Source of the DNA: an uncultured Rickettsiales bacterium
GTDB lineage: Bacteria; Myxococcota_A; UBA796; UBA9615
Assembly: GCA_964512225.1 (NCBI GenBank)
Contig: CAZEKB010000033.1
Location: forward strand, 424 to 64,423
Length of the DNA: 64,000 nt
Reading direction: 5' to 3'
Each line of letters starts with the position of its first letter. Positions within the stretch are counted from its first letter, which is position 1. The notes under the pieces are model-generated. The model had not been told where the DNA came from and did not search any database. It saw only the letters and a program-made list of their open reading frames with translations. This document shows, in pieces, positions 12,208-63,470 of this stretch. The position numbers and the translations under genes are program-made.

Positions 12208-12210
12208 CCC

Positions 12211-33332: not shown

Positions 33333-33383
33333 GACCAGTATTATCGGTCATGACGACCTATGATGACCACTATTTTCGGACAT
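33330..33383. promoter_or_regulatory. Tandem LysR-type binding sites
   Basis: ATGACCAGTATTATCGGTCAT (33331-33351) and ATGACCACTATTTTCGGACAT (33363-33383), both with dyad symmetry. Confidence 0.65.
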
Positions 33384-33459
33384 CGAAGCGGGTCGCACCT
33401 CGCGGGGCGGGCGTCTCCCCCTGCGCGCCCACCGACCAGCGCCGATGTAGGCTCGCTCG

Positions 33460-37199: not shown

Positions 37200-38173
37200 C
37201 GAGATCTCCTCCGTCGGGGAGTGTACCCGGCGGCTCGAACCGCTGCGGCGAGGGCCGACGCGTCGGGGATCCGGCGCTCCACGAGCGGCTCGAGCGCGCC
37301 CCGCACCACCGCCTCCAGGGCGGGGGGGACGGGGACTCCGTCGCGCCCCTCGAGGTCCTCGAAGCGACCGTGGACGGCGGCGAGGAGGAGGGCGGGGAGG
37401 TTCGGAGCCAGGAACGCGCGCGATCCGCACAGCAGCTCGAAGAGGACGGCGCCCAGGCTGAAGACGTCGGCCGGGGGGCCCAGGTCCTCGCGGCCCATCG
37501 CCTGCTCCGGGCTCATGTAGCCGGGGGTGCCGACGGTGAGGCCGTCCATCGTGAGCGGGGTCTCCACGAGCATGGCGCCCCGGCCGTCCGGCGCCTCGCC
37601 CGCGGCGGCGCGCACGCGGGCCACGCCCCAGTCGAGGACGAGCACCTCGCCGAAGGAGCCGAGCATGACGTTGTCGGGCTTGAGGTCCCGGTGGAGGACG
37701 CCCCGATCGTGAGCGTAGGCGACGGCCTCGCACACCCGGGTGAACGCCTCGAGGAGGCGCTCGCGAGTCCAGACGCGGGCGGTCTCGGGATCGCCCGAGC
37801 GGAGGGCGCGCAGCACGTCGCGCAGGGAGCGCCCCGTGATGTGCTTCATGGCGAAGTAGAGGCGGCCGTCGTCCGTGCGGCCGACGTCGTGTACGGGGAC
37901 GATCCCGGGGTGCTCGAGCTGGGAGGTCACCCGCGCCTCGGCGAGGAAGCGCTCCACCGCGTCCTGCTCGTCGAGGACGTGGGCGTGCAGCACCTTGATG
38001 GCGACGGTGCGACGGAGCTCGGGATCCCAGGCCTCCAGAACCACGCCCATGCCCCCCGAGCCGAGCTCCCGGAGGATGCGGTAGCGCCCGAAGCGGGTGC
38101 CGGGGCCCCCTTCGACGGCGTGGAGGTGGATGAGCGTGGAGGCGGCGCTGAGCGAGACGGCGGTGGAGGACAT
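37160..38173 (-). CDS. Hanks-type Ser/Thr protein kinase (kinase domain only)
   Basis: LGSGGMGVV, VAIK, HRDLKPDN, DWG, GTPGYMSPEQ, DVFSLG. Confidence 0.92.
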   Translation of the reverse strand: MSSTAVSLSAASTLIHLHAVEGGPGTRFGRYRILRELGSGGMGVVLEAWDPELRRTVAIKVLHAHVLDEQDAVERFLAEARVTSQLEHPGIVPVHDVGRTDDGRLYFAMKHITGRSLRDVLRALRSGDPETARVWTRERLLEAFTRVCEAVAYAHDRGVLHRDLKPDNVMLGSFGEVLVLDWGVARVRAAAGEAPDGRGAMLVETPLTMDGLTVGTPGYMSPEQAMGREDLGPPADVFSLGAVLFELLCGSRAFLAPNLPALLLAAVHGRFEDLEGRDGVPVPPALEAVVRGALEPLVERRIPDASALAAAVRAAGYTPRRRRSRCALGFSSSLPRW

Positions 38174-38327
38174 GGGCGGGGCTCCGGGAAGGCAGCAGAG
38201 ATGCCCCCCGGGGGAGCAACCCCCGTGCCGGCGGCGCGATGGGGAGGCGTCGTGCGTTCAGGGGAGGGTGGGACGGGGTGTTTCACGCAGGAGGCGGGGT
38301 GTTTCGCTGCTAGGGTCCCCGCGTTTC

Positions 38328-39017
38328 ATGTCGCGACCCGCGTTCAGCTTCTTCATCCCCTTCTTCAACGAGGAGGCGTCCCTGCGGCGCGCCGTGGAGG
38401 AGAGCCTCGCGGCGTTCGCGGAGCTCGACGACATCGAGATCGTGCTCGTGGACGACGGCTCCGCCGACGCGTCGCCCGGGATGGCGGACGCCTACGCGGC
38501 GGAGCACGATCGGGTGCGGGTGGTGCGTCACGCCGTCAACCGGGGCTACGGCCCCGCGGTGTGTACGGGGTTCCGAGAGTCCCGGGGCGCGATCGTCGGC
38601 TACACGGACGCCGACCTGCCGGTGGACCCGCGGCGCTACCTCGAGGGGCTGCAGCGGATGCACGACCTCGACGTGCTGGTGGGACACCCCCGCGGCTACG
38701 TGCAGCGTCGCCACCGCAAGCTCTACACGAAGGGCTACAACGCCCTGATTCGCGCGATGTTCGGCGTGCGGGTCACCAACATCAACTTCAGCTTCAAGCT
38801 GCTGCGCCGCCACGTGATCGACGGGCTCTCGCTGGACGCCGTGTCGGGGTTCGTCGACGCGCAGATCGTGATCGAGGCGCACCGCGGGGGCGCTACGATC
38901 GGGGAGATGCCGGTCGACTACCAGCCGCGCGAGGCGGGGATCTCGCACTTCGACAGCCCCCTGGCGGCCGTCCCGACGGCTCGGGAGGCGCTGTCCTGGT
39001 GGATGAGGACGCGCTGA
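38328..39017 (+). CDS. Glycosyltransferase family 2 (DPM-synthase-like)
   Basis: IPFFNEE, VDDGS.D, NRGYG.A...G, TDADL. Confidence 0.9.
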   Translation: MSRPAFSFFIPFFNEEASLRRAVEESLAAFAELDDIEIVLVDDGSADASPGMADAYAAEHDRVRVVRHAVNRGYGPAVCTGFRESRGAIVGYTDADLPVDPRRYLEGLQRMHDLDVLVGHPRGYVQRRHRKLYTKGYNALIRAMFGVRVTNINFSFKLLRRHVIDGLSLDAVSGFVDAQIVIEAHRGGATIGEMPVDYQPREAGISHFDSPLAAVPTAREALSWWMRTR

Positions 39018-39020
39018 CCC

Positions 39021-40655
39021 GTGCACGTCACCCTCATCAACCCGCCGCAGGTCTTCAGCAGGTTCCAGGTCGCGGCCGGGATCACGCCGCCCCTGGGCGT
39101 GGCGTACCTCGCCGCGTACCTGCGTGAGCACGGGGTCGAGCCGACTGTCGTCGACGCGCTGGGCGAGGCCCCCTCGCGGGTGACCCCGTTCCGGGGCCCG
39201 GCTCTCCTGCGCGGCCTGGATCTCCAGCAGACGGTCGACCGGGTCGACCCGCGGACTCGGCTGATCGGCATCAGCAACCTGTTCTCCTTCGCCTACCCGG
39301 CGGTCGAGGAGCTGGTCGCCGGGCTCAAAGCGCGCCTCTCGGGCGTGCCGATCGTGCTCGGCGGCCCGCACCCCGGGGCGCTGTGGGAGCGCTGCCTGGA
39401 CGACCCGAACGTCGACTACGTGGTCTCCGGGGAGGGCGAGCAGCCGCTGCTGGAGCTGTGCGAGCACCTCGACGGCCGCCGCGGCCTCGACGACCTGGAG
39501 GCGGTGGCGTTCCGCCGCGGCGAGGAGCGGGTGCACGTCCCCCAGAAGCGCACCCTGATCCGCAAGGTCGAGGACATCCCGTGGCCCGCCCGCGACCTGC
39601 TGCCGATGGAGAACTACGTCGCCACGCAGGAGGCGCACGGGCCGGTCACGAGCCGGTGGACGAGCATCCTGAGCTCGCGGGGCTGCCCCTACGGCTGCAC
39701 GTTCTGCGAGAGCCGCAATACCCGCTGGCGTGCGCGGCCGGCGGCGGACGTGGTCGACGAGATCGAGCACTGCGTGGACCGATGGAAGATCCGCGACTTC
39801 CACTTCGAAGACGACAACATGACGATCAGCCGCCGGCGGATCCTGGAGATGGCGGCCGAGCTCGACCGTCGGGGGCTGGGGATCGACTGGCAGACGCCCA
39901 ACGGCATCCGCGCCAGCGTCACGGACGAGGCGACGCTCGAGGCGATGCGGTCGTCGGGGTGCCGGCACATCACGCTCGCTCCCGAGAGCGGGTCGCCTCG
40001 CGTGCTCCGGGACATCGTCCAGAAGGGCAAGGACTTCGAGCTCGACCAGCTGGTGGAGGTGGCCGAGCTCGCCCACGGGATGGGGATGAAGGTGGCCTCC
40101 TACTTCATCCTCGGGCTGCCCGGGGAGCGCGAGGAGGACGTCGAGCTCACGATCGCGTACAGCCGTCGACTCGCGCGGGCGGGGGTGGACGAGGTCGGCT
40201 TCGGGCTGTTCATTCCCCTGCCGGGGACGCCCCTGTGGGACGAGCTCGGCAGCCGCGTCGACGACCTCGATCTGCTCTCGCTGTTGACGGTCGACGACCT
40301 CGACTCGTCGGTGTCGTTCAACGACGACCTCGACGACGACGACCTGCGCAGGCTGCGCCGCAAGGCGTACATGCTCTTCTTCCTGACGCGCCTCCGGCAC
40401 CACCCCCGGGGGTTCCTGCGCATGGCGGCGAACGTGCTGAAGTCGCGCCAGGAGACCAAGACGGACCGCGTGCTGATCAGCCTGCTGGACCGGATCCGAG
40501 GGGACGCGGGAGAGGGCCGCACGCTGCTCGCGTACCCGTACGACGCGGCCCGGACCGTCAAGGTGTTGCTCCAGGCCGAGAGCGGGTACGCGTTCGAGAA
40601 TGGCCCCTTGAAGACGCTTCGCCTCATGTTCCGTCGCCGCCGCGCGCCGCCGTGA
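39021..40655 (+). CDS. B12-binding domain radical SAM protein
   Basis: PPLG.AYLAA, GG.HP, GEGE, SRGCPYGCTFC (CxxxCxxC), F.DDN, ESGS.R.L. Confidence 0.92.
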   Translation: MHVTLINPPQVFSRFQVAAGITPPLGVAYLAAYLREHGVEPTVVDALGEAPSRVTPFRGPALLRGLDLQQTVDRVDPRTRLIGISNLFSFAYPAVEELVAGLKARLSGVPIVLGGPHPGALWERCLDDPNVDYVVSGEGEQPLLELCEHLDGRRGLDDLEAVAFRRGEERVHVPQKRTLIRKVEDIPWPARDLLPMENYVATQEAHGPVTSRWTSILSSRGCPYGCTFCESRNTRWRARPAADVVDEIEHCVDRWKIRDFHFEDDNMTISRRRILEMAAELDRRGLGIDWQTPNGIRASVTDEATLEAMRSSGCRHITLAPESGSPRVLRDIVQKGKDFELDQLVEVAELAHGMGMKVASYFILGLPGEREEDVELTIAYSRRLARAGVDEVGFGLFIPLPGTPLWDELGSRVDDLDLLSLLTVDDLDSSVSFNDDLDDDDLRRLRRKAYMLFFLTRLRHHPRGFLRMAANVLKSRQETKTDRVLISLLDRIRGDAGEGRTLLAYPYDAARTVKVLLQAESGYAFENGPLKTLRLMFRRRRAPP

Positions 40656-41497
40656 AGCGGCTCATCGTGAGCGCCGACGACGTCGGCCTGGTCCCGGGCA
40701 TCACCGCGGGCGCGCTGCGGGCCTTGCGGGACGGGATCGTGACGTCGATCTCGGTGATGACCGCGACGTCGGGGTGGGACGCGACCCGCGCCGCGCTCGT
40801 CGACGCGGGGGTGACCCACGTGGGCGTCCACATGACCCTGTGCGAGGGCCGCCCGGTCCTCGCCGCGGAGCGGATCCCCACGCTCGTGGACCCCTCCGGT
40901 GCGTTTCCGATCGACTTCGGGGCGGTGGTCCGGCGGGTGGCGACGGGGCGGGTCGATCGCGGCGAGCTGACCCGCGAGTGGATCGCCCAGGTGCGGCGGG
41001 CGCAGGAGGCGGGGTTTCGGGTCACGCACGTGGACGGCCACAAGCACGCGCACCTGCTCCCGGGGCTCCCGCGGGTGTGTCGGGCGGTGCTCGAAGCGAC
41101 CGGAGTCCAGGGCCTGCGCCGGCCGCACGAGCCCGGTCCCGGTCCGCGGCGAGGGGTCCGCGCGGCCCTCTCCCTGGCTTCGACCGCCGCGGGGCGGTGC
41201 GGACGGGCCCCGGATCGGTGCGTCGGGATCGGCGTGGCGGGCGGGCTGACGGAGGACCGGCTGCTGGAGCTGCTGGGCAGGCTGCCCGACGGCACCTCGG
41301 AGCTGGTGTCCCACCCCGGGGCAGGCGGGGCGCAGCTCGTGACCGCCATGGAGGCGGACGGGCTGGCCTGGGGGCGCGACTACGGGTTCGGGGACGAGCT
41401 CGCGGCGCTGACGTCGCCCCGGGTGCGGGCGGCGGTGGAGGCGGCGGACATCGAGCTGATCTCCTGGGCGACGTTCCTCGAGGGCGCGCCGGTCTAG
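40652..41497 (+). CDS. ChbG/HpnK (YdjC) family deacetylase
   Basis: LIV.ADD.G, G.VTS.S.M, VGVH.TL.EG, THVDGH.H.H, EL..HPG. Confidence 0.9.
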   Translation: MKRLIVSADDVGLVPGITAGALRALRDGIVTSISVMTATSGWDATRAALVDAGVTHVGVHMTLCEGRPVLAAERIPTLVDPSGAFPIDFGAVVRRVATGRVDRGELTREWIAQVRRAQEAGFRVTHVDGHKHAHLLPGLPRVCRAVLEATGVQGLRRPHEPGPGPRRGVRAALSLASTAAGRCGRAPDRCVGIGVAGGLTEDRLLELLGRLPDGTSELVSHPGAGGAQLVTAMEADGLAWGRDYGFGDELAALTSPRVRAAVEAADIELISWATFLEGAPV

Positions 41498-43578
41498 GGG
41501 ACGACGAAGGGGTCCACGGAGTCGCCCGCGCGCCAGGAGGCCCGGGCGTCGGCGAAGGCCCAGCCCCGGGCGAAGCCGTCCGCGAGGGCCGGCTCCCACC
41601 CCGCGAGGCTCTCGGGAGACCACTGCGTCGTGGGCGCGATCCGGCGCAGCCTGGAGGCCGCCCCGTAGACGATGTTCGGGCCGAACTCCGCCGACGTGAA
41701 GAGCGGGTGGCCGCCGCGGCCGAAGAGGGCCTCGGGCGTCGTCACGCGGGCGAGCTCGGTGTCGACGTGCAGGCGCCCGATGAGCGGGCACAGCGGGCGC
41801 GTCCCCCAGGACGTGGCCGCGCAGGCGGCGCGCACGAACGTCGTGCCGCGGCCTTGGACGGCGTCGAAGGGGAGGCCCTCCTGGAACCCGCGCAGCAGCA
41901 CCTCGCCCCGCTCGGGGCCGAGCGACTCGGCGTTGGCGAACACGCCCGCGACGAGCTCCTCGACGGGGATCTCGGCGTGGCTGTGGGGGGCGTCGCCGAG
42001 GACCCGGCCCATGCCCTGGACCAGGAACGGCACGTCCTTGGGCAGCGGCCGCCCCCAGTGCTCCTCGAACTCGTCGAGGCGGCGGCTCAGGTACGCCGGA
42101 TCCGCCACGAGCTTGGTCGCGTCGGCCGCCCAGTAGCGGCCCGCGGCGCGCCGGTGGGCGGCGCGGCTGATCGGGTCCGGGTGCCCGCACCGGACGTGCC
42201 AGTACATCCCGGGCCCCCGGCCGAGGCCGGGCCCGTAGAAGCCGAGGTAGGAGAAAGGGTCCAGCTCGTCGCGGAGCTGGTCGGGCTCGGCGTAGTGCTC
42301 CGCGTCCAGGGCGGCGGCCCAAGCCCCCGCGCCGACGACCCAGAGCACGCCGAAGGATGCCGCCCGGGTCCACCTCCATCGCCACAGCAGCCCCGCGGCG
42401 CCCGCCAGGCCCAGGGTCCAGGCGAGCTGGATCGGCACGACGTAGCGCGGCGCCGGGACCCCGGGGGCGCCGACCACGACGGGGTCCGCGAGGGTCTGCA
42501 GGATGGTCGGGTCGACCCGGAAGGGGGCCACGACGTAGCTCGCCGCGTAGCCCGCCCCCAGGGCCAGGAGGACCGCGGCCGCCCACCCCGCAGCCCGGGT
42601 CGGGGCCTTCGCGAGTGAGCCGAGGGCCGCCGCCAGGAGGCCGATCCCCACGAGCCACGCCGCCGACCAGGTGCGGCCCGCCCACGCGAACAGCTCGAGG
42701 TGGTGGCGGTCGCCCGCGTCGCCCGCGATCGCGAACAGGTAGGGGCGGAGCGTGACGCCGAGGGCCTCGAGGGTCTTTTCGGCGTACGCGGGGGTCGCCG
42801 ACTCCGCCCGGATCGCCCCCATGACCTCGCGGAATACGAGGCCGAAGCCGCGGTTCGCGAGGGGGCCCCCGTCGGCGGTGAGGAAGAGCGCGTTGGCGGC
42901 CCCCAGGAGTGGGAACCCGAGGAGGCCGACGGCGCATCCGGCGAGGGCCCGCAGGCCGCCGGGCGCGAGGGCGACGAGCAGCGCGGGCCCCGCGGCCACG
43001 GCCGTCCGGATGTACCAGGCCCCGAAGGCGAGGGCCGCCCCCGCGGCGAGACCGCGTCTCCAGGTCGGCGGGCCGCGGCCGGAGACGGCGATGGCGAGGG
43101 GCACGAGGCCGTAGAGGAACCCCGACGAGTGGCCCCCCGCGGGGGTGAGGAGGCCGTCCTTGATCACGAACGGGGACGCCGCGAGCAGCAGGAGGAAGGC
43201 GACGGCGCCGACGGGCCCGGTGAGCCGACGGAGCAGGACGACACCGGCGGCCGCGATCCCCATGGCGTAGGCGAGGCCGTACCACTTCCAGGCGAGGAGG
43301 TGGTCGCCGAAGACGGCGAACCCCAGGGCCGACAGCAGGGCGTCGACCACGCTCGATCCCTGGTAGACGTTCCCCTGGAACCACCTCAGCTGCTGGATGT
43401 GGCCGTGCAGCAGCTCGCGGCCCGCGGTGGGGACGAGCAGGGACTCGTGGTCGTGCAGGTAGGCCGCGTGACCCTCGAGGCGCACGAGGAAGGCGGCCCC
43501 CACCACCGCGACCCCGAGGGCCCAGGCGGCCGCCTCGAGCGCCGCCCGCCGACGCTCAGAAGAGGTGGTCGTGGTCAT
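41494..43578 (-). CDS. Polytopic membrane protein, GT-C/ArnT-like
   Basis: About 10-12 hydrophobic helices, N-terminal loop with DHE and YQG, soluble C-terminal domain. Confidence 0.6.
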   Translation of the reverse strand: MTTTTSSERRRAALEAAAWALGVAVVGAAFLVRLEGHAAYLHDHESLLVPTAGRELLHGHIQQLRWFQGNVYQGSSVVDALLSALGFAVFGDHLLAWKWYGLAYAMGIAAAGVVLLRRLTGPVGAVAFLLLLAASPFVIKDGLLTPAGGHSSGFLYGLVPLAIAVSGRGPPTWRRGLAAGAALAFGAWYIRTAVAAGPALLVALAPGGLRALAGCAVGLLGFPLLGAANALFLTADGGPLANRGFGLVFREVMGAIRAESATPAYAEKTLEALGVTLRPYLFAIAGDAGDRHHLELFAWAGRTWSAAWLVGIGLLAAALGSLAKAPTRAAGWAAAVLLALGAGYAASYVVAPFRVDPTILQTLADPVVVGAPGVPAPRYVVPIQLAWTLGLAGAAGLLWRWRWTRAASFGVLWVVGAGAWAAALDAEHYAEPDQLRDELDPFSYLGFYGPGLGRGPGMYWHVRCGHPDPISRAAHRRAAGRYWAADATKLVADPAYLSRRLDEFEEHWGRPLPKDVPFLVQGMGRVLGDAPHSHAEIPVEELVAGVFANAESLGPERGEVLLRGFQEGLPFDAVQGRGTTFVRAACAATSWGTRPLCPLIGRLHVDTELARVTTPEALFGRGGHPLFTSAEFGPNIVYGAASRLRRIAPTTQWSPESLAGWEPALADGFARGWAFADARASWRAGDSVDPFVVP

Positions 43579-44161
43579 GGTCGTGGGTGCGGAGGTGCCC
43601 GAGCACGTGGAGCAGGGCCCCCGCGAGGGCGCACAGCAGGAGCGCGGTGACGGGTCCCCCCGTGGCCGGGGTGACGGTGGTCGTCGTCCAGAACCCGACG
43701 GCGGTGCAGGCCGCCGTGGCCGCGAGCACCGCCGCCGCGGCGGCGGCTCCGGCGCGGTGCTTCACGATCCGCCAGGTGGCGACCCCCACCGGCAGGGTGT
43801 GGACCAGCACGGCGGCGGCCAGCGGGTGTTCGTGGCCGTGCCCGCCCGGGGCGGCGAGGGCGGCGCCGTCCACGAGCGCGTGGAGCAGGAGGGCGCCGAT
43901 GGCGAGCCACGCGCCGCCGTGGGCGAGGCCCGGGATCCGGTGCAGCAGGGAGGCGAACAGCGCGCCCCCGGCGAGCGCGGGCACGGCGGGCCATCCGATG
44001 GCCTCGAGACCGTAGGGCAGCACGGTGAGGGCCACGACCGCCACGACGACGACGACCACCACGACGTCCACGATCCGCTGCAGGACCGGGTGGCGGTCCC
44101 AGAGGCGATCGAGCAGCGGAGCCGCCGCGAGGGCGAGCAGGGCGAGGAGGAGAGGCAGCAA
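43556..44161 (-). CDS. ZIP/ZupT-like metal transporter
   Basis: LHALVDGAAL and VLVHTLPVG resemble ZIP TM4/TM5 motifs; His-rich loop GHGHEH and tail HDHDHDH. Confidence 0.6.
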   Translation of the reverse strand: MLPLLLALLALAAAPLLDRLWDRHPVLQRIVDVVVVVVVVAVVALTVLPYGLEAIGWPAVPALAGGALFASLLHRIPGLAHGGAWLAIGALLLHALVDGAALAAPGGHGHEHPLAAAVLVHTLPVGVATWRIVKHRAGAAAAAAVLAATAACTAVGFWTTTTVTPATGGPVTALLLCALAGALLHVLGHLRTHDHDHDHLF

Positions 44162-46073: not shown

Positions 46074-46156
46074 TGAACATGTTCAGAAAGTGGTTGATCC
46101 GCGGGAGGCCCACCCCTAGATTGAACACGTTCAACACCATGGAGTGAACACGTTCA
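46074..46156. promoter_or_regulatory. Three TGAACA(T/C)GTTCA palindromes (putative TetR operators)
   Basis: Copies at 46074-46085, 46122-46133 and 46145-46156; the last abuts the ATG at 46157. Confidence 0.8.
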
Positions 46157-47722
46157 ATGTCGAAGCCGTCGAAGCAGTCCGCCCGTCTCCGCATCCTCGA
46201 AGCCGCGTTCCAGGAGTTCGCCGATCGCGGGTTCGAGGCCACCACGATGCGCGGCGTCGCCAAGCGCGCCGGGTGCTCGCTGGGCCTCGCGTACGCCTAC
46301 TTCCCCTCGAAGCACGGGCTGGGGCTGGCGCTGTACCGACGCGTCGCGGACGAGGTGGAGCGCGAGATCCCCAACCTGCCCGACGGCACGGTCGCGGAGC
46401 GGTTCGGCGCGCTCATGGAGGCGAAGTTCGGGTTCCTCGACGCTCACCGCCCGACGCTGACCGCCCTGATCGCCGCGGGGATCGACCCCACGGGTCCCCT
46501 CGGGGCGCTCTCCGACGCCACGGCCGCGATCCGCTCCCGGAACTCCGCGGCGTTCGCGGCGGCGGTGGCGGGCGCGACGGACGCGCCGAAGGAGTCGAAG
46601 GACCGAGCGGCGCTCGGGCGGCTCGCCTACGGCATCCACCTCCTGCTCATCCTCGTGTGGACCCAGGACGTGGAGGGCAGGCTGGCCCGCGAGGTCCTCG
46701 GGGTGGCGTGCCGCGTCCTCAAGGGCGCCGTCCCGTTGATCCTGCTGCCCCCGATCAAGGGCCCGCTCGACCGCCTCGACGCGGCGTTCGGCGACCGCCT
46801 CACGGCGGCCGTGAGCGCCGACGTGGAGGAGCGCGCCCGCATCGTCGTCACCCGGCTCATGCGGCACCGTCGGGTCCTCCCCAGCGTCGGCCCGGTGGAC
46901 GACGCGGCGATGGCGCCGCACCTCGTCCGCGTCCGCGCGGCGATCGTGGAGGGCCGCCCGCTCGAGCTCGTGCTCCCCGGCTTCCCGGCGAAGTCGCCGA
47001 GCCCGTTCAAGACCCTCGGGCCGCTCCCCGACATGGCGGAGCGGCTCGCGCTCCGGTCGCTTCAGGACCTGTGCGACGAGCTGTCCGAGGCGCACGCCCC
47101 CGGCGTCACGCTCACGCTCTGCTCGGACGGCGGCGTGTTCGCCGACCTCGTGGGCGTGTCCGATGAAGACGTGATCGCCTACGGGGAGCACATCGACGCG
47201 TGGATCGAGGACCTGCCGTCGCTCCGCCGGTTCGATCTCCCCGACGCGTTCGGTCCGATGGCGCCGTCGGACGCCCGGGCGCGTCTGATGGACGGGTGGT
47301 CCGAGGACACGGAGGTGCTGCGCCGCCGCGCCCGGGAGGTGCCCGCCCTGCGCACCCTCCTGGACGGCCTCCAGCGGTTCCTGTTCGAGGATCGTCTCGG
47401 GGTCGACCGGCGGAGCCGCACGCAGATCCGCAAGAGCGCGGGGGCGGACGCGATCGAGCTCCTGCGTCGATCGCGTGCGTGGGGTCGACTCGTCGCGTTC
47501 CAGTTCCCGGACGCCGTGCGCCTCAGCATCCACCCGCAGCCCGCGCTGTCGGACAAGCTCGGCGTGCACCTGGTGCCCACGGCCGATGCGTGGCTGACGC
47601 CGTGGCACGGGGTCGCGCTCCTGGGGGAGGACGGCTTCGAGCTGGTGAAGCGTCGGGACGCCGAGGAGTGCCAGGCCCGCCTCGTCCTGGCCGACGGCCG
47701 CCCGAGCCACTTCGAGCGATGA
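46157..47722 (+). CDS. TetR regulator fused to isonitrile synthase (PvcA/IsnA/Dit1 family)
   Basis: N-terminal TetR HTH (ILEAA...F..RGF..TTMR.VAKRAG.S.G..Y.YFPSK); C-terminal LPGFPAKSP, GPLPD.AE.LAL, CSDG..F.DL, S.AW, RLSIHPQ, K.GV.L, W.TPWH. Confidence 0.88.
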   Translation: MSKPSKQSARLRILEAAFQEFADRGFEATTMRGVAKRAGCSLGLAYAYFPSKHGLGLALYRRVADEVEREIPNLPDGTVAERFGALMEAKFGFLDAHRPTLTALIAAGIDPTGPLGALSDATAAIRSRNSAAFAAAVAGATDAPKESKDRAALGRLAYGIHLLLILVWTQDVEGRLAREVLGVACRVLKGAVPLILLPPIKGPLDRLDAAFGDRLTAAVSADVEERARIVVTRLMRHRRVLPSVGPVDDAAMAPHLVRVRAAIVEGRPLELVLPGFPAKSPSPFKTLGPLPDMAERLALRSLQDLCDELSEAHAPGVTLTLCSDGGVFADLVGVSDEDVIAYGEHIDAWIEDLPSLRRFDLPDAFGPMAPSDARARLMDGWSEDTEVLRRRAREVPALRTLLDGLQRFLFEDRLGVDRRSRTQIRKSAGADAIELLRRSRAWGRLVAFQFPDAVRLSIHPQPALSDKLGVHLVPTADAWLTPWHGVALLGEDGFELVKRRDAEECQARLVLADGRPSHFER

Positions 47723-49407
47723 AGACGAAGCCCCTCCAGCCGTTCGGCGTCGAGGTGACCGTCCCCACGGGCACGACGTGGTCGACCCTGGACCTCCCCG
47801 CGCTCGTGGCGTTGGGGGAGGAGCACCGCGTGGTCGTCGTGCGGGGCGTCGCGCCCCAGGCCCCCGAGCAGCTCGCCCGCGACTGCCGGGACCTCGGCCG
47901 GCTCCAGCCCTGGCGGTTCGGGGCGGTGCACGAGCTGAAGCACGACCCCGAGGCCGACAACTACCTCTACACCGACCACCCCGTGCCCCTGCACTGGGAC
48001 GGCGCGTTCGCCGACGAGGTGCCCCACTGGCTGGTGTTCCGATGCGTCCGCGCGCCGGCCGCGGGGGGCGAGACGACGTTCGTGCACACCCCCCGCGTCC
48101 TCGCCGCGGCGACCGACGAGCAGCGCGCGCGCTGGGGGGCGACGCGGGTTCGGTACACGACGGAGAAGAAGGCCCACTACGGGGGCACGTTCACCGAGGC
48201 GGTCGTGGGCGGACACGCGACCGAGGGCACGCCGGTGCTGCGGTACGCCGAGCCCGTGGACGATCTCAACCCGGTCTCGGCCACGCCCGACGGCCCCGAC
48301 GCGCACCGCCTGCACGCCGAGCTGCGGGACGTCCTGTGCGGCCCCGACGTGCTCCTCGAGCACGCCTGGCGAGACGGGGACCTGGTGATCGCCGACAACC
48401 ACGCGCTGCTGCACGGCCGCCGGGCGTACGACGCGTCGGGTCCCCGGCACCTGCTCCGCGTGAACATCCTCGATCCGCGCCCGGGCTGGCGGGCGAAGCT
48501 GCACGCGTCGTGGCGGCTGCGTCGCCCCGAGTTCCTCGAGGCGGAGATCCCGATCCTCGCGATCCCGGCGCTGCTCGCGGCCCCGGATCTCGCGGCCCTC
48601 GCCACGGCGACGATGCTCGACGTCTTCCTCCTCTTCTTCCTGTGGTTCCACCTCGGCGACCTCGTGAACTGCCTCATGGACCGCGAGGTGGACGTGCACC
48701 GCAAGACGCACCTCAGCGAGGCGGTGCGGACCCTGGGCGTGCGGAACGTGAAGGCCCAGATCGTGGCGACGGCCCTCGCTTCGGCGGCGGTGGCGGCGCA
48801 CCTCGTCCTCGCGCTGGGGCGCATGGATCTGGCCGTGCTCGGCGTCGTCGGCGTGGGGCTGGCGATCCAGTACACGGCCCCCCCGATCCGCATGAAGTCG
48901 CGGGGGCGATGGCAGATCGTCGCGTACATGGGCCTGCTCTTCGTCTTCCCGATGTCGTTCATCGAGATCGCGGTCGCAGGGCACGTATCGGCGACGGGGC
49001 TGCTCGTCTCGGTCGCCTACGCCGCCATGCAGAGCGGGATCCTGCTCGTGAACAACGCCGAGGACCTGGACGAAGACGAGCGGGAGGGCATCTACACGGC
49101 GTCGATCGCCCTGGGGGCCCGGCGGGCGGTGCGCGTGGGGCGCGCGATGGCGGTCGGGGGCGGCTCGGCCCTCGCGATCGTGCTGGCGGCGACGGCGGGG
49201 CCGTGGGGTCTCGGCGCGCTGCCCCTGCTGATGACGACCGTCGCCACCGACCGGTGGCTCGTCCGGCTCCAGCGGCGCGTGGACGGCGCCCCCGAGGCGG
49301 AGGCGCGCGAGGCGATCCGAGCCCAGGGCAAGCACGTCCCCACCCGCATCGAGTCGGGGGCGTGGGCCGCGCTGTTCGCGGCCGGGGTCACCTTCCTCCT
49401 CGGCTGA
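47719..49407 (+). CDS. TauD/TfdA dioxygenase (PvcB/IsnB-like) fused to UbiA-family prenyltransferase
   Basis: LHWDGAF (HxD), GGET.F, H.W..GDLVIADN..LLHGR; then NCLMDREVD and NNAEDLDED Asp-rich motifs with multiple TM helices. Confidence 0.85.
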   Translation: MKTKPLQPFGVEVTVPTGTTWSTLDLPALVALGEEHRVVVVRGVAPQAPEQLARDCRDLGRLQPWRFGAVHELKHDPEADNYLYTDHPVPLHWDGAFADEVPHWLVFRCVRAPAAGGETTFVHTPRVLAAATDEQRARWGATRVRYTTEKKAHYGGTFTEAVVGGHATEGTPVLRYAEPVDDLNPVSATPDGPDAHRLHAELRDVLCGPDVLLEHAWRDGDLVIADNHALLHGRRAYDASGPRHLLRVNILDPRPGWRAKLHASWRLRRPEFLEAEIPILAIPALLAAPDLAALATATMLDVFLLFFLWFHLGDLVNCLMDREVDVHRKTHLSEAVRTLGVRNVKAQIVATALASAAVAAHLVLALGRMDLAVLGVVGVGLAIQYTAPPIRMKSRGRWQIVAYMGLLFVFPMSFIEIAVAGHVSATGLLVSVAYAAMQSGILLVNNAEDLDEDEREGIYTASIALGARRAVRVGRAMAVGGGSALAIVLAATAGPWGLGALPLLMTTVATDRWLVRLQRRVDGAPEAEAREAIRAQGKHVPTRIESGAWAALFAAGVTFLLG

Positions 49408-49434
49408 GGTACAACCCTCAGCTGGGAGCGACTC

Positions 49435-50658
49435 ATGACGTTGGTTCGAATCGCGTGGCGCAACCTCTGGCGGCACCGTCGTCGGACGCTCATCACCGCG
49501 TCCGGGATGGCGATCGCCATGGGGCTCGTCATCTCCATGTCCGCCATGCAGGACGGCATGTTCGACATGATGGCGGACATCATGGTCCGGCAGCAGCTGG
49601 GCCACGCGCAGGTCAACCACCCGGACTGGCCCGGCCGCGAGCAGATGTACGACACGGTCCCCTCGGACCTCGTCTCGAAGTTCAAGGAGCGCCCCGAGAT
49701 CACCGGGGCGTCCGGCCGCATGTTCACGTTCGGGCTCGCGGCGTCGGACGTGACGTCGGTGGGCGCCCGCTACGTCGGCATCGACCCGGTGGCGGATCTC
49801 GCCATCACGGACCGCTCGCAGAGCGTCGTGCGCGGCGAATACCTGTCGCCCGAGGCGAAGGGTGAGGTCGTCATCGGAGAGGCGATGGCCGACGAGCTCG
49901 AGCTCGACCTCGGGGGCGAGCTGATCTTCCTCGGCCAGGCGGCCGACGGATCCATGGCCAACGAGCTGCTGACGGTCGTGGGCACGTACTCCACCGGCAT
50001 CGACCAGATGGACAAGACCGGCGCCTACCTGCACGTCAGCGACCTGCAGCGCATCCTCGCCCTCGAGGATCAGCTCCATCAGATCCTCGTGGTGGGGGAG
50101 GACATGAACCTGTCCGCCGACATCGCGGCCGCGACGTCCGAGGTCGCCGGGGAGGGCGTGCAGGTCCGGTCCTGGGAGGAGGCGGACCCGGCGATGGCCC
50201 AGATGATGGGCATGCGCGACGTCAGCCTGATCTTCATGCTGGTCATCATCTTCAGCGTGGCCGGCCTGGCCGTGCTCAATACCAACCTCATGACCGTCTT
50301 CGAGCGCACCCGCGAGCTCGGCGTGCTGCGAGCCATCGGCCTGACGCGCACCAAGATGATGGCGCTCGTCATCCTCGAGAGCATCCTGCTCACGGCCGTC
50401 GCGAGCGTGCTCGGGATCGCCCTGGGCGGCTTCCTCGACTGGCTCCTCGTGGAGTACGGGTTCCCCTACGAGACGGCCGACGGCAAGGGCTTCAGCTGGC
50501 AGGGCGTGACGTTCCCCACGCGCTTCTACGGGGCCGTGCGGCCGTTCCCGTTCGTCGTCACCACGGTGTTCGTCTTCCTGGTCGCCATCGCGGCGTCGAT
50601 CTGGCCCGCCGCCCGCGCCGCGCTGCTGCGCCCCGTCGAAGCCATGAGGGAGTCCTGA
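49435..50658 (+). CDS. ABC transporter permease (MacB/FtsX/LolE-like)
   Basis: AWRNLWR..RRT; V.ERTRE.GVL.AIG; four-TM topology. Confidence 0.9.
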   Translation: MTLVRIAWRNLWRHRRRTLITASGMAIAMGLVISMSAMQDGMFDMMADIMVRQQLGHAQVNHPDWPGREQMYDTVPSDLVSKFKERPEITGASGRMFTFGLAASDVTSVGARYVGIDPVADLAITDRSQSVVRGEYLSPEAKGEVVIGEAMADELELDLGGELIFLGQAADGSMANELLTVVGTYSTGIDQMDKTGAYLHVSDLQRILALEDQLHQILVVGEDMNLSADIAAATSEVAGEGVQVRSWEEADPAMAQMMGMRDVSLIFMLVIIFSVAGLAVLNTNLMTVFERTRELGVLRAIGLTRTKMMALVILESILLTAVASVLGIALGGFLDWLLVEYGFPYETADGKGFSWQGVTFPTRFYGAVRPFPFVVTTVFVFLVAIAASIWPAARAALLRPVEAMRES

Positions 50659-51887
50659 TGTTCCTGCTGGCGATCCGCAACCTCTGGCGGAACAAGATCC
50701 GCACCGGGATCACGCTCGCGGCCATCAGCGGCGGCCTGACGCTGATCATGATGGGCAACAACCTCAACCACGGCATGTACCAGGACATGATCAAGAAGGG
50801 GATCAGCACGATCGCCGGTCACGTCGTGGTCCAGCCCGAGGGCTGGCAGGACGACCCCGACGCCGTGGATCGGTCGGTCGCCGACGCCGACGCGATCGCC
50901 GAGAAGGTCGCGGGCGCGTGGCCGGGCGCGAAGGTCGTGCAGCGGACCTTCTTCGGGGGGCTGCTCACGTCGCCCACGAGCTCCGCGGGCGTCGGCATCA
51001 CGGCGATCCAGCCCGAGGCCGAGCCGATCGTGTCGGACTGGCACACCAAGGTCTCCGAGGGAGAGTGGCTGAAGGAGGGCGACGCACGCGGGATCCTCAT
51101 CGGCGCGAAGCTCGCCGAGACGCTGGACGTGAAGGTCGGCAAGAAGCTCGTCCTCATGGGCCAGGGCAAGGAGGAGGTCGTCAGCCAGCTGTTCCGCGTC
51201 CGGGGGATCATCAAGACGGGCTCCGCCCAGGCCGACGGCATCCTCGCCATCACGTCCGTGGAGGCCGCCATGACGTTCCTCGAGCAGCCGGGCGCGGTGA
51301 GCCAGATCTCGCTGCACCTGCCCGTGAGCGACGACTCCGACGCCGCCCTCGCCGCGGTGCAGGGGGCGGTGGCGGGGACGGCCGGGATCGAGGTGCTGGG
51401 GTGGAAGGAGGCGGTCGCGGAGATCTACGAGTTCACCCAGACGGACCGCCGCACCAACAACAGCTTCATGTTCATCATCGGGATCATCGTCGCGTTCGGG
51501 ATCGTCAATACGATCCTCATGAGCGTGATGGAGCGCATCCGCGAGTTCGGGGTGATGCTCGCGCTGGGCACGCCGCCCCTGAAGCTGCGGGCGATGATCC
51601 TCGTCGAGGGCCTCGTCATCGGCGTGCTCGGGGCCGCCATCGGGCTGGCCTTCGGCAGCGCGCTCACGTCGTACCTGGTCACCAACGGCATCGACTACAG
51701 CGAGATGATGGGCGAGTCCTTCGACATGGCCGGCGTCTCGATCAGCACCGTCATCAAGGCGCAGTGGGACTGGGTCAGCATGGCCGCTTACTGCGTCGTC
51801 GCGGTGGTCCTCAGCATCCTCTCCACCGTCTACCCGGCATGGAAGGCGGGCGCGCTGCAGCCCGTCGAAGCCATGCGTCACGTCTAG
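50658..51887 (+). CDS. ABC transporter permease (MacB/FtsX/LolE-like)
   Basis: AIRNLWRN..RT; NTILMSV.ERIREFGVM.ALG. Confidence 0.9.
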   Translation: MFLLAIRNLWRNKIRTGITLAAISGGLTLIMMGNNLNHGMYQDMIKKGISTIAGHVVVQPEGWQDDPDAVDRSVADADAIAEKVAGAWPGAKVVQRTFFGGLLTSPTSSAGVGITAIQPEAEPIVSDWHTKVSEGEWLKEGDARGILIGAKLAETLDVKVGKKLVLMGQGKEEVVSQLFRVRGIIKTGSAQADGILAITSVEAAMTFLEQPGAVSQISLHLPVSDDSDAALAAVQGAVAGTAGIEVLGWKEAVAEIYEFTQTDRRTNNSFMFIIGIIVAFGIVNTILMSVMERIREFGVMLALGTPPLKLRAMILVEGLVIGVLGAAIGLAFGSALTSYLVTNGIDYSEMMGESFDMAGVSISTVIKAQWDWVSMAAYCVVAVVLSILSTVYPAWKAGALQPVEAMRHV

Positions 51888-51896
51888 GAGCCGAAG

Positions 51897-52580
51897 ATGG
51901 CCATCGTCGAAGTCCGCGGTCTGACGCGGACCTACCAGCAGGGGACGCTCGACGTCCCCGCCCTGCGCGGCGTCGATCTCGACATCGAGCCCGGCGAGTT
52001 CACCGTCCTCATGGGGCCCAGCGGGTCGGGCAAGACGACGCTGCTGAACCAGATCGGTGCGCTGGACATCCCGGACGCCGGGTCCGTCAAGGTCGAGGGC
52101 CGGGAGCTGTCCGGCCTGTCCAAGGGAGAGCTCGCGAAGCTCCGGCTCGACCGCATCGGGTTCGTCTTCCAGGCCTACAACCTCATCCCCGTGCTCACCG
52201 CGTACGAGAACGCCGAGTTCGTGCTCCTGATGCAGGGCGTGAGCAAGAAGGAGCGGACGGAGCGGGTGATGAAGACCCTGCACACCGTCGGCCTGGAGGG
52301 CATGGAGCACCGGCGCCCGACCGAGCTGTCCGGCGGGCAGCAGCAGCGGGTGGCGGTCGCCCGGGCGATCGCGGGCGGGCCCGCCCTGGTGCTGGCGGAC
52401 GAGCCCACGGCGAACCTCGACAGCGCCACCGGCTACGCGCTCATCGAGACCATGAAGAAGCTGAACGAAGAGGACGGCGTGACCTTCGTCTTCGCCACTC
52501 ACGATCCCAAGGTGATGGAGCACGCGCGTCGGATCGTGCGGCTCGTCGACGGCAGAATCGATGAGGACATCCACAAATGA
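51897..52580 (+). CDS. ABC transporter ATP-binding protein (LolD-like)
   Basis: GPSGSGKTT, GFVFQ.YNL, LSGGQQQRVA.AR, LADEPT.NLD, H-loop ATHD. Confidence 0.95.
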   Translation: MAIVEVRGLTRTYQQGTLDVPALRGVDLDIEPGEFTVLMGPSGSGKTTLLNQIGALDIPDAGSVKVEGRELSGLSKGELAKLRLDRIGFVFQAYNLIPVLTAYENAEFVLLMQGVSKKERTERVMKTLHTVGLEGMEHRRPTELSGGQQQRVAVARAIAGGPALVLADEPTANLDSATGYALIETMKKLNEEDGVTFVFATHDPKVMEHARRIVRLVDGRIDEDIHK

Positions 52581-53326
52581 GAACGCCCGCCCTGATCACC
52601 GCGCTCCTGGTCGCGGCCCCCTCCGCGCTCGCCGAGGAGGGCAAGCCCACGCTCGAGTCCCTCCTCAACGGCGTCGACGACGTCCAGCGCGGGCAGTCCA
52701 GCAAGGCGCGCGTCGCCATGCACGTCAAGACGAAGCGCTGGGAGCGCACGCTCGTGATGGAGAGCTGGTCGCAGGGTGAGGACAAGTCCCTCATCCGCAT
52801 CGTCTCCCCCGCCAAGGAGGCGGGCACCGCGACCCTGATGGTCGACGACAACATCTGGAACTACCTGCCCAAGGTCGATCGCACGATGAAGGTGCCCGCG
52901 TCGATGATGTCGGGCGCGTGGATGGGGTCGCACTTCACCAACAACGACCTCGTGCGCTCGGACCGGCTGGCGGACGTGTTCACCTACGAGCTCGTGGAGG
53001 AGCCCGCGGCGGACGGGGCGGGGCACTGGGTCATCGAGTGCGTGCCCAAGGAGGACGCGGCGATCGTGTGGGGCAAGGTCGTGGTGAAGGTCCGCGGGGA
53101 GGACAGGATCCCCGACGAGATCACGTACTGGGACGAGGACGGCGCCCTCGTGCGCACGATGCAGTTCCTGGACATCCGCGAGGTGAGCGGCCGCAAGGTC
53201 CCCATGAAGATGCGGCTGGTGCCCGCGGATGAGCCCGACGAGTTCACGGAGGTGACGTACCAGGCCCTGGAGTTCGACCCGGACCTGCCCCCGGGCACGT
53301 TCTCGCTGCAGAGCCTGCGGAAGTAG
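52577..53326 (+). CDS. Outer membrane lipoprotein-sorting (LolA-like) protein
   Basis: SLIR...PAKE.GTA.L, W.YLP...R..K......WMGS.F.N.D. Confidence 0.85.
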   Translation: MRTPALITALLVAAPSALAEEGKPTLESLLNGVDDVQRGQSSKARVAMHVKTKRWERTLVMESWSQGEDKSLIRIVSPAKEAGTATLMVDDNIWNYLPKVDRTMKVPASMMSGAWMGSHFTNNDLVRSDRLADVFTYELVEEPAADGAGHWVIECVPKEDAAIVWGKVVVKVRGEDRIPDEITYWDEDGALVRTMQFLDIREVSGRKVPMKMRLVPADEPDEFTEVTYQALEFDPDLPPGTFSLQSLRK

Positions 53327-53330
53327 CCCG

Positions 53331-54656
53331 GTGCGGCTGGTCCCGGGGCTGGTGGCGGCGTGCCTGCTGCTCCCCACGGGCGCCCACGCCGCCCGCGTCG
53401 TCGACACGGATCGGCTCCAGATCGACGTCGGGGGCGACATCAAGGGCTTCTTCGACGCCGTCTTCCCCTACGAGCACCTGATCATGCCCGAGGACCCGAT
53501 CGCGTCGGCGGCGCTCGACTTCCGGTTCAAGTTCTCGGGCGACTACTCGACCTGGCTCAGCTGGGAGCTGCACCACTCGCTGACGGCGCGGTTCCGGCCC
53601 GGAGAGGCCACGACCTTCGGCATCACCCCGGGCACGGGGCAGCCGGTCGCCGACGAGGCGCTGACGATGTCGTACACGGCGGTCGATACGCCGCACTTCG
53701 AGCTGGCGGGGCGCTTCGACCGGCTCAACCTGAGCTTCCACCTGCCCGGCCTCGACATCTCGATCGGGCGGCAGCCGGTGAGCTTCGGGACCGGGCTGTT
53801 CTTCACGCCCATGGACCTGCTCGCGCCGTACACGCCGCAGGTGGTGGACCGGGAGTACAAGCCGGGGGTGGACGCCGCCCGCTTCGACGGCTTCCTGGGC
53901 GCGACCGGGCGGCTGACGGGCGTCGTGGGCGTCATCGAGGAGTTCTCGCTCGAGGGGCTGTTCGTGGCGGGGTACGGCGGGTTCACCGTGGGCGTGACGG
54001 ACCTGAACTTCTTCGCCGCGAAGATCCGCAAGGACCTGGTGGTCGGGGTCGGGACGGCGTCGTCGATCGGGCCCGTCGGGGTGCACGCGGACGTCACGGT
54101 GACCGTCCCGTTCGAGGGCGAGGACACGTGCCCGGGGGCGAACTCCCTGGCCGATGAAGACGAGGCCTGTCCCCCGTTCTTCCGCGGGGTGGTGGGGGCG
54201 GACATCCGGACGGGGTTCGGGATGTCGGTCGCGGGCGAGTTCTACGTGCAGACGGCCGGGGCGACGGACCGGACGCGGTACCTCGAGGTGGCGACGCGGC
54301 CGCGGTTCGCCCGGGGCGAGCTGTGGACGATGGGCACGTTCTACGGCGGGCTGTCGATCACGCAGGAGATCATCCCCATCGTGTTCGTCAACGTATCGCT
54401 GATGACGAACTTCCTGGATCCGAGCTTCTTCGTGGCGCCGGGCCTCACGTGGTCGGTGTCCGAGAACGCGGAGTTCGCCATCGGCGGGTTCTTCACCATC
54501 GGCGCGAGGCCGGACGAGGTCGAACTCGTCGATCTCATCGACCCGGACACGCTCCAGCCGCTCTCCGAGGACGAGCTCTTGGAGGTGATCCGGAGCAACA
54601 GCGAGTTCGGCCTCGCCCCCCACCAGTTCTACGCCCAGCTCAAGTTCTACTTCTAG
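53331..54656 (+). CDS. Hypothetical outer-membrane beta-barrel protein
   Basis: Signal peptide; DRL, GRQ..S.G.G.FF.P.D, RE.KPGVDA.R; terminal YF. Confidence 0.75.
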   Translation: MRLVPGLVAACLLLPTGAHAARVVDTDRLQIDVGGDIKGFFDAVFPYEHLIMPEDPIASAALDFRFKFSGDYSTWLSWELHHSLTARFRPGEATTFGITPGTGQPVADEALTMSYTAVDTPHFELAGRFDRLNLSFHLPGLDISIGRQPVSFGTGLFFTPMDLLAPYTPQVVDREYKPGVDAARFDGFLGATGRLTGVVGVIEEFSLEGLFVAGYGGFTVGVTDLNFFAAKIRKDLVVGVGTASSIGPVGVHADVTVTVPFEGEDTCPGANSLADEDEACPPFFRGVVGADIRTGFGMSVAGEFYVQTAGATDRTRYLEVATRPRFARGELWTMGTFYGGLSITQEIIPIVFVNVSLMTNFLDPSFFVAPGLTWSVSENAEFAIGGFFTIGARPDEVELVDLIDPDTLQPLSEDELLEVIRSNSEFGLAPHQFYAQLKFYF

Positions 54657-59750: not shown

Positions 59751-59762
59751 CGGCCGACCAGT

Positions 59763-63430: not shown

Positions 63431-63470
63431 GACGGGAGTGTACAGCCGCGTCCGGACCGTGCTCTAGAGT

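Follow-up and report, generated by a model that had tools for sequence, protein, structure and literature searches.

A widespread candidate isonitrile cassette with a fused membrane prenyltransferase domain and a built-in TetR-family domain

Introduction

Isonitrile synthases of the PvcA/IsnA kind work together with a TauD-fold oxygenase, as in the IsnA/IsnB pair of Photorhabdus and Xenorhabdus (rhabduscin) and the PvcA/PvcB pair of Pseudomonas aeruginosa (paerucumarin). Here we describe a two-gene operon, located in a 64,000-nucleotide stretch of contig CAZEKB010000033.1 (the window), whose products are homologous to both partners of these pairs and are encoded in the same order, with a TetR-family domain added to the N-terminus of the synthase (gene 1) and a nine-helix UbiA prenyltransferase domain added to the oxygenase (gene 2). 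The iron triad, the 2-oxoglutarate (2OG) arginine and the carboxylate anchors of gene 2 are identical to those of the known systems, whereas its two selectivity positions are Ala/Ala in place of the K/N or L/C of the known enzymes, and its predicted tailoring step is a prenylation where rhabduscin is glycosylated and paerucumarin is oxidized by PvcC/D. To our knowledge, the characterized PvcA/IsnA-type pathways all give soluble or glycosylated aryl isonitriles, or hapalindole alkaloids by way of soluble prenyltransferases.

The hapalindole, ambiguine and welwitindolinone pathways (AmbI1-3/WelI1-3) likewise combine an IsnA/IsnB-type module with prenyl transfer to an aryl vinyl isonitrile, as described in PMC4236562. 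Those pathways rely on soluble prenyltransferases, geranyl or dimethylallyl donors and large cyanobacterial clusters, whereas the operon described here has a fused membrane UbiA domain and only two genes; no soluble aromatic prenyltransferase domain was found in gene 1 or gene 2 with Pfam or NCBIfam. A UbiA-type enzyme that acts in secondary metabolism is CnqPT1 (PMC4044012). Gene 2 shares with the UbiA superfamily (ChlG/BchG, MenA and homogentisate phytyltransferase) the fold of nine transmembrane (TM) helices and two cytoplasmic Asp-rich motifs, but it differs in its first motif, which reads N-C/T/A-x-x-D-x-x-x-D and not N-D-x-x-D-x-x-x-D, and in its fusion to an oxygenase. Chlorophyll and bacteriochlorophyll synthases, MenA and homogentisate phytyltransferase use C20 or long-chain donors. 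AuaA of the aurachin pathway is a myxobacterial UbiA-type enzyme of secondary metabolism, and we know of no such enzyme that has so far been linked to isonitriles.

Isonitriles are strong metal ligands and are found among chalkophores and enzyme inhibitors. The isonitrile lipopeptides of Mycobacterium and Streptomyces (ScoE-type) are lipophilic isonitriles as well, of a class linked to copper and other metal handling (SF2768 chalkophore, PMC13500777). Their enzymology is unrelated: ScoE forms the isonitrile by acting on the glycine adduct of an acyl chain, whereas the operon encodes a PvcA-type synthase and would draw its lipid part from a prenyl diphosphate, and the gene 2 oxygenase matches ScoE only remotely, at the level of the fold. 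The architecture of gene 1 resembles that of the trigger enzymes PutA and BirA, pathway enzymes that carry a DNA-binding domain whose operator lies at the promoter of the pathway itself, but unlike these proteins gene 1 joins a TetR-family domain, predicted to bind DNA, to an isonitrile synthase.

A sequence-only reading of the window had taken the product to belong to an apparently undescribed compound class. The literature searched, in which subscription journals are few, contained neither a PvcA/PvcB cassette with UbiA nor a fusion of TetR to an isonitrile synthase, which is no more than absence of evidence. Isonitriles go unmentioned in two reviews of Myxococcota gene clusters, and neither the cassette nor the TetR fusion is described in a network analysis of bacterial isonitrile synthases. 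Papers on the Ubi-297/ebo operon (PMC9235831), sandacrabin and the indiacens were set aside as unrelated or uninformative. On the evidence of sequence and predicted structure presented below, the operon is a widespread, uncharacterized isonitrile cassette of the PvcA/PvcB-IsnA/IsnB kind that includes a membrane prenyltransferase and a predicted regulator of its own. Two of these elements go beyond the earlier reading, namely that the cassette forms a widespread family and that its TetR half has a conserved candidate operator.

Results

Gene 2 is an in-frame fusion of two domains

The two genes (Table 1) are coupled by the ATGA overlap that had been noted from the sequence, in which the ATG of gene 2 at 47719 runs into the TGA of gene 1 at 47720-47722. 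The frame from 47719 to 49407 on the plus strand reads through without interruption as 562 aa, and this translation together with Pfam confirms the sequence-only reading that an Fe/2OG domain of the PvcB/IsnB type continues in frame into a UbiA domain with several TM helices. Searching 5.8 billion proteins gave at least 120 relatives of gene 2, nearly all of them full length (552-607 aa) and all but one truncated match containing both domains. These homologues cover 96-100% of the query and share its start methionine, and the short ATG start at 47719 is therefore taken as correct over a longer GTG open reading frame (ORF) from 47200. Both domains are also present in a 99%-identical copy; because this copy and the at least 120 relatives carry the same two domains, the fusion is, as judged from the sequences, far beyond chance.

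The oxygenase domain retains the catalytic and anchoring residues of PIsnB

The N-terminal half of gene 2 matches TauD (PF02668) from residue 3 to residue 248, with 129.5 bits where the cut-off is 27 (E 2.8e-37). Its top two PDB sequence matches are PIsnB of Photorhabdus (7tcl, E 4e-41) and PvcB (3eat, E 1.6e-40), with the third match 33 orders of magnitude weaker, and a profile built from 39 family members gives 6e-70 for 7tcl and 2e-64 for 3eat. The AlphaFold2 model of the whole protein has a predicted local distance difference test score (pLDDT) of 93.3 and a predicted template modelling score of 0.89, and Foldseek places 7tcl (template modelling score, TM-score, 0.84 over the target), 4ylm and 3eat as its top three matches in a full-length list that is dominated by the oxygenase half.

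Residues were mapped onto PIsnB by way of the paper on the PIsnB-substrate structure (PMC9467999), and conservation was read from an alignment of 39 homologues with 42-85% identity to the gene 2 protein of the window. The HxD...H triad recognized in the earlier reading is H92/D94/H232, equivalent to the iron ligands H101/D103/H250 of PIsnB, and is invariant in the 39 sequences, as is the 2OG arginine R243. R265 of PIsnB anchors the substrate carboxylate while W74 stacks on R265 (PMC9467999), and these two residues together with G104 correspond to R247, W65 and G95 of gene 2, which are likewise invariant. Because the iron triad and the carboxylate anchors map to PIsnB and, like R243, do not vary, the domain has, by this mapping, the equipment of PIsnB and PvcB for binding an alpha-isocyano acid. 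The pocket triplet M105-Y106-K107 of PIsnB becomes A96-F97-A98, with G95-A96-F97 invariant in the family. An Ala-Phe-Ala mutant of PIsnB lost stabilization by tyrosine isonitrile (PMC9467999), and since the gene 2 triplet equals that mutant, the aromatic pocket is predicted to be larger or differently shaped than in PIsnB. Position 98 is variable within the family, and position 177 is almost always Ala.

Gene 1 joins a TetR-family domain to an isonitrile synthase

The C-terminal half of gene 1 matches DIT1_PvcA (PF05141) at aa 259-506 (E 6e-60, 203 bits) and the PvcA structure 3e59 over aa 244-519 (E 9e-63). The sole curated isonitrile synthase model that it matched, the L-tyrosine isonitrile synthase model NF045653, scored 209.5 bits against a cut-off of 600; by homology the domain is a member of the PvcA/IsnA family below the equivalog level. 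Alignments of the N-terminal half to TetR structures span aa 7-188 (3c07 over aa 7-176) and include the lipid-sensing regulators KstR, FadR and DarR. The same TetR-PvcA architecture is found in more than 100 homologues, and more than 1,000 relatives of the protein were found, including Pyrinomonadaceae (Acidobacteriota), Planctomycetes and Candidatus Sericytochromatia metagenome-assembled genomes (MAGs). As a separate observation, an ENA metagenome protein of 695 aa (P0216) holds an isonitrile synthase and TauD in one polypeptide (PF02668+PF05141), a fusion reminiscent of fungal XanB-type enzymes.

The UbiA domain has a predicted UbiA fold and conserved motifs

UbiA (PF01040) covers aa 278-522 of gene 2 with 77.3 bits, where 34.2 is the cut-off (E 1.5e-21). 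Hydropathy places membrane segments at aa 275-560 and none before residue 270, and AlphaFold2 predicts nine long helices in this half with pLDDT of about 90. Modelled alone (pLDDT 89.8), the UbiA half gives full-length matches to every solved member of the UbiA superfamily, namely AfUbiA, DGGGPS, ApUbiA, UBIAD1 and the Rv3806c phosphoribosyltransferase, at TM-scores of 0.6-0.7. The two Asp-rich motifs that had been seen in the sequence are present and invariant or nearly so, both among the 39 aligned sequences and across all related loci; E448 is nearly invariant, and about 30 further UbiA positions plus K329 are invariant across sequences that are 42-85% identical. The loop after motif 1 reads KTHLSEAV, where RP(L/I)PSG is usual. 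Cys318 was considered as a special catalytic residue and rejected, as one clade has Thr or Ala at this position. From the parity of the helices in the AlphaFold2 model and from hydropathy, with the soluble domain taken as cytoplasmic, both Asp motifs and the N-terminal oxygenase are placed on the same, cytoplasmic side of the membrane.

Among 16 UbiA domains of the family that were scanned, all 16 match the chlorophyll synthase, bacteriochlorophyll synthase and PRK12875 prenyltransferase models and 12 match the MenA and homogentisate phytyltransferase models, in every case far below threshold, and none matches a model of 4-hydroxybenzoate polyprenyltransferase or heme O synthase. The best curated score is 52 bits, short of the equivalog level (PRK12875, cut-off 205), followed by 42-47 bits for the ChlG, BchG and MenA models against cut-offs of 212-313. 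By family profile the best solved relative is chlorophyll a synthase (9e-11).

Co-occurrence of the four domains

Named relatives of gene 2, with taxa taken only from the source names in the homologue listings of the two genes, are Archangium, Polyangia, Polyangiaceae, Sandaracinaceae, Sandaracinus, Minicystis and 'Myxococcales', all of them Myxococcota MAGs. The pair [TetR-PvcA][TauD-UbiA] is kept in an Archangium MAG, in a Sandaracinus MAG and in the 85% relative of the window, with unrelated flanks. In contigs of Pyrinomonadaceae and Planctomycetes, TauD and UbiA are separate adjacent genes downstream of a long PvcA. Across 69 fetched loci (labelled L) and the window, both halves occur in 49 loci, as a fusion in 41 and as separate adjacent genes in 8 (one Acidobacteriota MAG, one Planctomycetes MAG and six metagenome loci), a count that is biased towards fusions by search patterns drawn from the fusion alignment. 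TetR-PvcA lies directly upstream in every both-halves locus with enough DNA, except in the L017/L019 lineage. Loci with PvcA and TauD and without UbiA (e.g. L049, L053, L058, L063) also lack the TetR extension, and hence the four domains appear to travel together. The functional link between oxygenase and prenyltransferase suggested by the sequence-only reading is backed by the separate adjacent genes of other phyla, by TetR-PvcA upstream in nearly all loci and by genes for tailoring of prenyl lipids and phenols in related loci.

The two closest genome records (L006, L007) are labelled as uncultured Rickettsiales MAGs. This label looks unreliable, because the window DNA is about 72% G+C and the named homologues of both genes belong to Myxococcota or other soil and sediment phyla.

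A palindrome marks the start of the operon

Three copies of a palindrome, TGAACAnGTTCA, lie in the 135-bp gap between gene 1 and a divergent DMT_6 (DUF486) gene. No fourth copy was found within the 64 kb, for which shuffled sequences give an expectation of 0.11. Of 37 loci, 11 have the palindrome ahead of the orthologous gene, and over all 37 its density is 3.66/kb in the 220 nt upstream against 0.002/kb elsewhere (more than 1000-fold). It is present in four copies in the 85% relative, three in a 74% relative, four in a 71% relative, one in Archangium and two in a non-fused lineage (L047), and a degenerate version occurs in Sandaracinus; the loci of Acidobacteriota and Planctomycetes have no recognizable palindrome. 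Because the palindrome occurs only before the operon in the window and recurs in distant relatives, autoregulation of the operon by the fused TetR domain through these sites is probable.

Accessory genes in related loci

The gene directly after the fusion gene encodes a flavoprotein in seven loci. The two flavoproteins that were scanned have their best curated match in the geranylgeranyl reductase family TIGR02032 (105 and 96 bits, cut-off 158.8) and also match MenJ, BchP/ChlP and archaeal lipid reductases (DGGGPL reductase). In L009 a class-A aromatic hydroxylase gene follows UbiA with overlapping codons; its product resembles HpxO, 3-hydroxybenzoate 6-monooxygenase and salicylate monooxygenase, and relatives 26-32% identical to it are present, not always directly adjacent, in L020, L038 and L043. 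A Coq4-like protein of about 150 aa is encoded in 13 loci; in many lineages its gene stands between the isonitrile and UbiA genes, behind them or in their vicinity. It has one hydrophobic segment and the signature PNPG...HDLHHV...GE.E...ELRTG, matches the C-terminal half of Coq4 (the zinc-motif region) just below the Pfam threshold, and has no NCBIfam match. L008 also contains genes for YceI (polyisoprenoid-binding fold), MarR and pirin. None of these accessory genes is present in the 64-kb window. Together, the accessory genes point to a prenyl chain long enough for a reductase to act on and to a phenol-type ring.

Genomic neighborhood of the operon

Downstream of gene 2, only 27 nt with no terminator-like site separate its stop codon from a group of transporter genes (Table 1), and these genes, with those for the LolA-like and 441-aa proteins, may be read through from the isonitrile operon. 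In the 85% relative (L004), a 159-aa MarR-like (HTH_MmpR5) gene lies in the stretch 11689-12289, between the fusion gene and the MacB-like genes, and this MarR-like gene of about 600 bp is absent from the window at 49405-49437. The MacB-like ABC, LolA-like and 441-aa genes were rejected as conserved members of the cluster, as their synteny is seen only in that relative and with the MarR-like gene in between.

Upstream, 2 kb from the operon, the minus strand encodes at 43556-44161 a membrane protein of 201 aa whose tail is rich in His (HLRTHDHDHDHLF); its orthologue has a faint match to ZIP metal transporters, it is conserved only in the close relative, and it could be relevant if the isonitrile product handles metals. 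Further upstream, genes for a family 2 glycosyltransferase, a B12-binding radical SAM protein and a YdjC-like protein stand in a row at 38085-41497 (plus strand), and the YdjC-like gene is followed by a minus-strand gene for a 694-aa multi-pass membrane protein without family match (stretch 38085-43578); the order of these last two is kept in the 85% relative, and L004 covers only these two. An EgtD-like histidine-specific SAM methyltransferase (33451-34464, plus strand; Methyltransf_33, E 3.5e-100), a type of enzyme that marks ergothioneine-type betaine synthesis, is encoded divergently from a LysR regulator (32430-33347).

Beyond the transporter genes, a formate-dehydrogenase-like molybdopterin oxidoreductase with 2Fe-2S, 4Fe-4S, Molybdop_Fe4S4, Molybdopterin and Molydop_binding domains is encoded at 57051-59762 on the minus strand. 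It has one in-frame TGA at 58689-58691 (context CHQCAAT-TGA-HAPTVAGL), which looks like a selenocysteine codon rather than a sign of a broken gene. The minus strand also encodes a NuoF-like subunit, at 61901-63463.

Table 1. Features of the isonitrile operon, its surroundings and selected related loci (positions refer to the window unless a locus is named; AF2, AlphaFold2; HTH, helix-turn-helix)
Feature	Position	Strand	Evidence or remark
Operator region, three palindrome copies	46074..46156	.	TGAACAnGTTCA; TGAACA(N)GTTCA
Palindrome copies	46074-46085, 46122-46133, 46145-46156		third abuts gene 1 start codon
Gene 1, TetR + PvcA/IsnA fusion, 521 aa	46157..47722	+	Pfam, PDB matches, homologues
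TetR-family domain, aa ~7-188 (HTH aa 13-58)	46175-46720	+	Pfam TetR_N E 3e-14
PvcA/IsnA-type synthase domain, aa 244-519	46886-47713	+	Pfam DIT1_PvcA, PDB 3e59
Gene 2, PvcB/IsnB-type oxygenase + UbiA, 562 aa	47719..49407	+	translation, Pfam, homologues, AF2
Oxygenase domain, aa 3-251	47725..48471	+	Pfam, PDB matches, mapped residues
Fe ligands H92, D94, H232	47992-47994, 47998-48000, 48412-48414	+	mapped to PIsnB
UbiA domain, aa 270-561, nine predicted TM helices	48526..49401	+	Pfam, hydropathy, AF2, Foldseek
UbiA motif 1, N317-C-L-M-D321-R-E-V-D325-V-H-R-K329	48667-48705	+	alignment
UbiA motif 2, N445-A-E-D449-L-D-E452-D453 (also as N445-x-x-E-D449-x-x-E452-D453)	49051-49077	+	alignment
Two MacB/FtsX permeases, ABC ATPase, LolA-like protein, 441-aa protein without family match	49435..54656	+	Pfam
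Coq4-like (HDLHH) protein genes	L002 11725-12177; L008 9599-10087; L023 2653-3102		
Coq4-like (HDLHH) protein, further loci	L013, L024, L027, L041, L044, L045, L047, L056, L067		
TauD-UbiA fusion gene alone	L017 3343-5100		upstream DUF3108, diacylglycerol kinase, one gene without assignment

Discussion

The gene fusion, the conserved adjacency and the co-variation of all four domains argue that they serve one pathway, and we consider it probable, with considerable room for doubt, that the locus is a self-contained, TetR-autoregulated two-gene operon for a membrane-retained prenylated aromatic isonitrile. By homology, the PvcA/IsnA domain would convert an aromatic L-amino acid, most likely tyrosine, to the alpha-isocyano acid with ribulose-5-phosphate as carbon donor. 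The oxygenase domain would hold this acid through R247, W65 and G95 and desaturate its side chain, giving either a decarboxylated vinyl isonitrile or an isocyanoacrylate that keeps its carboxylate. The UbiA domain, with its predicted Mg2+/diphosphate motifs on the cytoplasmic face, would then transfer a prenyl chain, probably of about C20 or longer, from a prenyl diphosphate to the aromatic product, so that the isonitrile becomes lipid-anchored; the fusion would set the oxygenase beside the membrane active site. The TetR domain is predicted to bind the operators that overlap the operon start and to be released by a ligand that is probably hydrophobic. Other lineages would add to this core an enzyme resembling geranylgeranyl reductase, a phenol hydroxylase and a Coq4-like protein. 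Tyrosine is favored over tryptophan, and a donor of C20 or longer over a shorter one, because the accessory genes suggest a reducible prenyl chain and a phenolic ring. The final metabolite may be present in part as its N-formyl hydration product.

Several observations weigh against this interpretation. The canonical first Asp of motif 1 is replaced by Cys, Thr or Ala in the family and is never Asp, and the UbiA domain lies far below every curated equivalog cut-off, such that acceptor, donor and regiochemistry are not readable from homology. The ORFs of the window that were scanned, spanning about 25-64 kb, include no prenyl diphosphate synthase. The two positions that predict the outcome of the oxygenase reaction, K/R with N/H for a vinyl isonitrile and L with C for an isocyanoacrylate (PMC9467999), correspond to K107 and N188 of PIsnB and are Ala98 and Ala177 here, matching neither class, while the Ala-Phe-Ala pocket weakens the case for tyrosine or implies a bulkier substrate. 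In the L017/L019 lineage the fusion gene has no adjacent PvcA, none being present within 3.4-4.5 kb upstream, and either the synthase is encoded elsewhere in the genome or the enzyme has another substrate. Finally, every carrier seen is a metagenome assembly, and the pathway is read from sequence.

The identity of the amino acid is the point on which the evidence divides most directly. The same pathway could plausibly run from tryptophan to a prenylated indolyl (vinyl) isonitrile, as a membrane-enzyme counterpart of the first hapalindole-type steps, which we regard as possible but on the unlikely side. Sandaracinus species make prenyl indoles, the indiacens, and a Sandaracinus MAG carries the cassette. 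The indiacens are mentioned in PMC9306752. The enlarged aromatic pocket, A96-F97-A98 against M105-Y106-K107 in PIsnB, would suit an indole, given that the corresponding change in PIsnB ended stabilization by tyrosine isonitrile (PMC9467999). Set against this, the nearest relative of the PvcA domain is PvcA, a tyrosine enzyme, in a comparison set without Trp-specific references, and the one curated isonitrile synthase model to match it, albeit below threshold, is specific for L-tyrosine. The hydroxylase and Coq4-like genes of related loci fit a phenolic ring, and UbiA-family acceptors are typically phenolic. A different chemistry, with retention of the carboxylate as in PvcB and with UbiA esterifying it with a C20 prenyl alcohol unit, or O-prenylating the phenol, instead of C-prenylation, seems to us distinctly unlikely. 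Among solved structures and curated models, the nearest to the UbiA domain are indeed those of carboxylate esterifiers, the chlorophyll and bacteriochlorophyll synthases; the ChlP/BchP-like reductase gene that follows in seven loci mirrors the pairing of ChlG with ChlP; and decarboxylation cannot be forecast, because the predictor positions are Ala98 and Ala177. The similarity to ChlG is weak, however (45 bits, 9e-11), with the MenA and homogentisate phytyltransferase models scoring nearly as well, and relatives of the geranylgeranyl reductase act on menaquinone and archaeal lipids too.

That the UbiA domain is a mere membrane anchor, or prenylates an unrelated acceptor such as a quinone precursor, and that the product is a soluble aryl vinyl isonitrile or its N-formyl form, is in our estimation highly improbable. 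This explanation would account for a motif 1 without its first canonical Asp, and isonitriles readily hydrate to formamides (PMC9467999, supplement). It leaves unexplained, however, why the Asp motifs, K329 and about 30 UbiA positions, needless in an anchor, are invariant at 42-85% identity, why the UbiA gene remains adjacent where it is not fused, why prenyl-chain reductase genes co-occur, and why classical isnA/isnB loci without UbiA are also without the TetR extension. Returning to a prenylated, membrane-retained aromatic isonitrile as the preferred product, a bolder extension, which we hold to be unlikely, is that it is no secreted antibiotic and instead represents a novel membrane lipid class, an aryl isonitrile anchored by a geranylgeranyl or polyprenyl chain and serving the producer itself, with the TetR-synthase as a trigger enzyme. 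Quinone-pathway-like enzymes would then further hydroxylate or reduce the product in some lineages, its role would lie, for example, in copper or iron handling at the membrane or in modulating respiratory haem-copper enzymes, and the TetR-synthase would switch between operator DNA and the membrane oxygenase-prenyltransferase in response to the lipid product.

In summary, the cassette is still one more orphan gene-cluster family with inferred chemistry, and it predicts an unseen class of lipid-anchored isonitriles. Its recurrence in Myxococcota, Acidobacteriota, Planctomycetota and possibly Sericytochromatia places it in soil and sediment bacteria, and the fact that all carriers seen are uncultured may explain why it was missed. 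With only two genes in 3.25 kb, the cassette is amenable to direct heterologous expression. The fusion of a TetR-family domain to an enzyme, together with a conserved operator, offers a model of regulator-enzyme fusion and a possible ligand-responsive switch, and a membrane-resident isonitrile could matter for metal homeostasis, predation or respiration in these bacteria.

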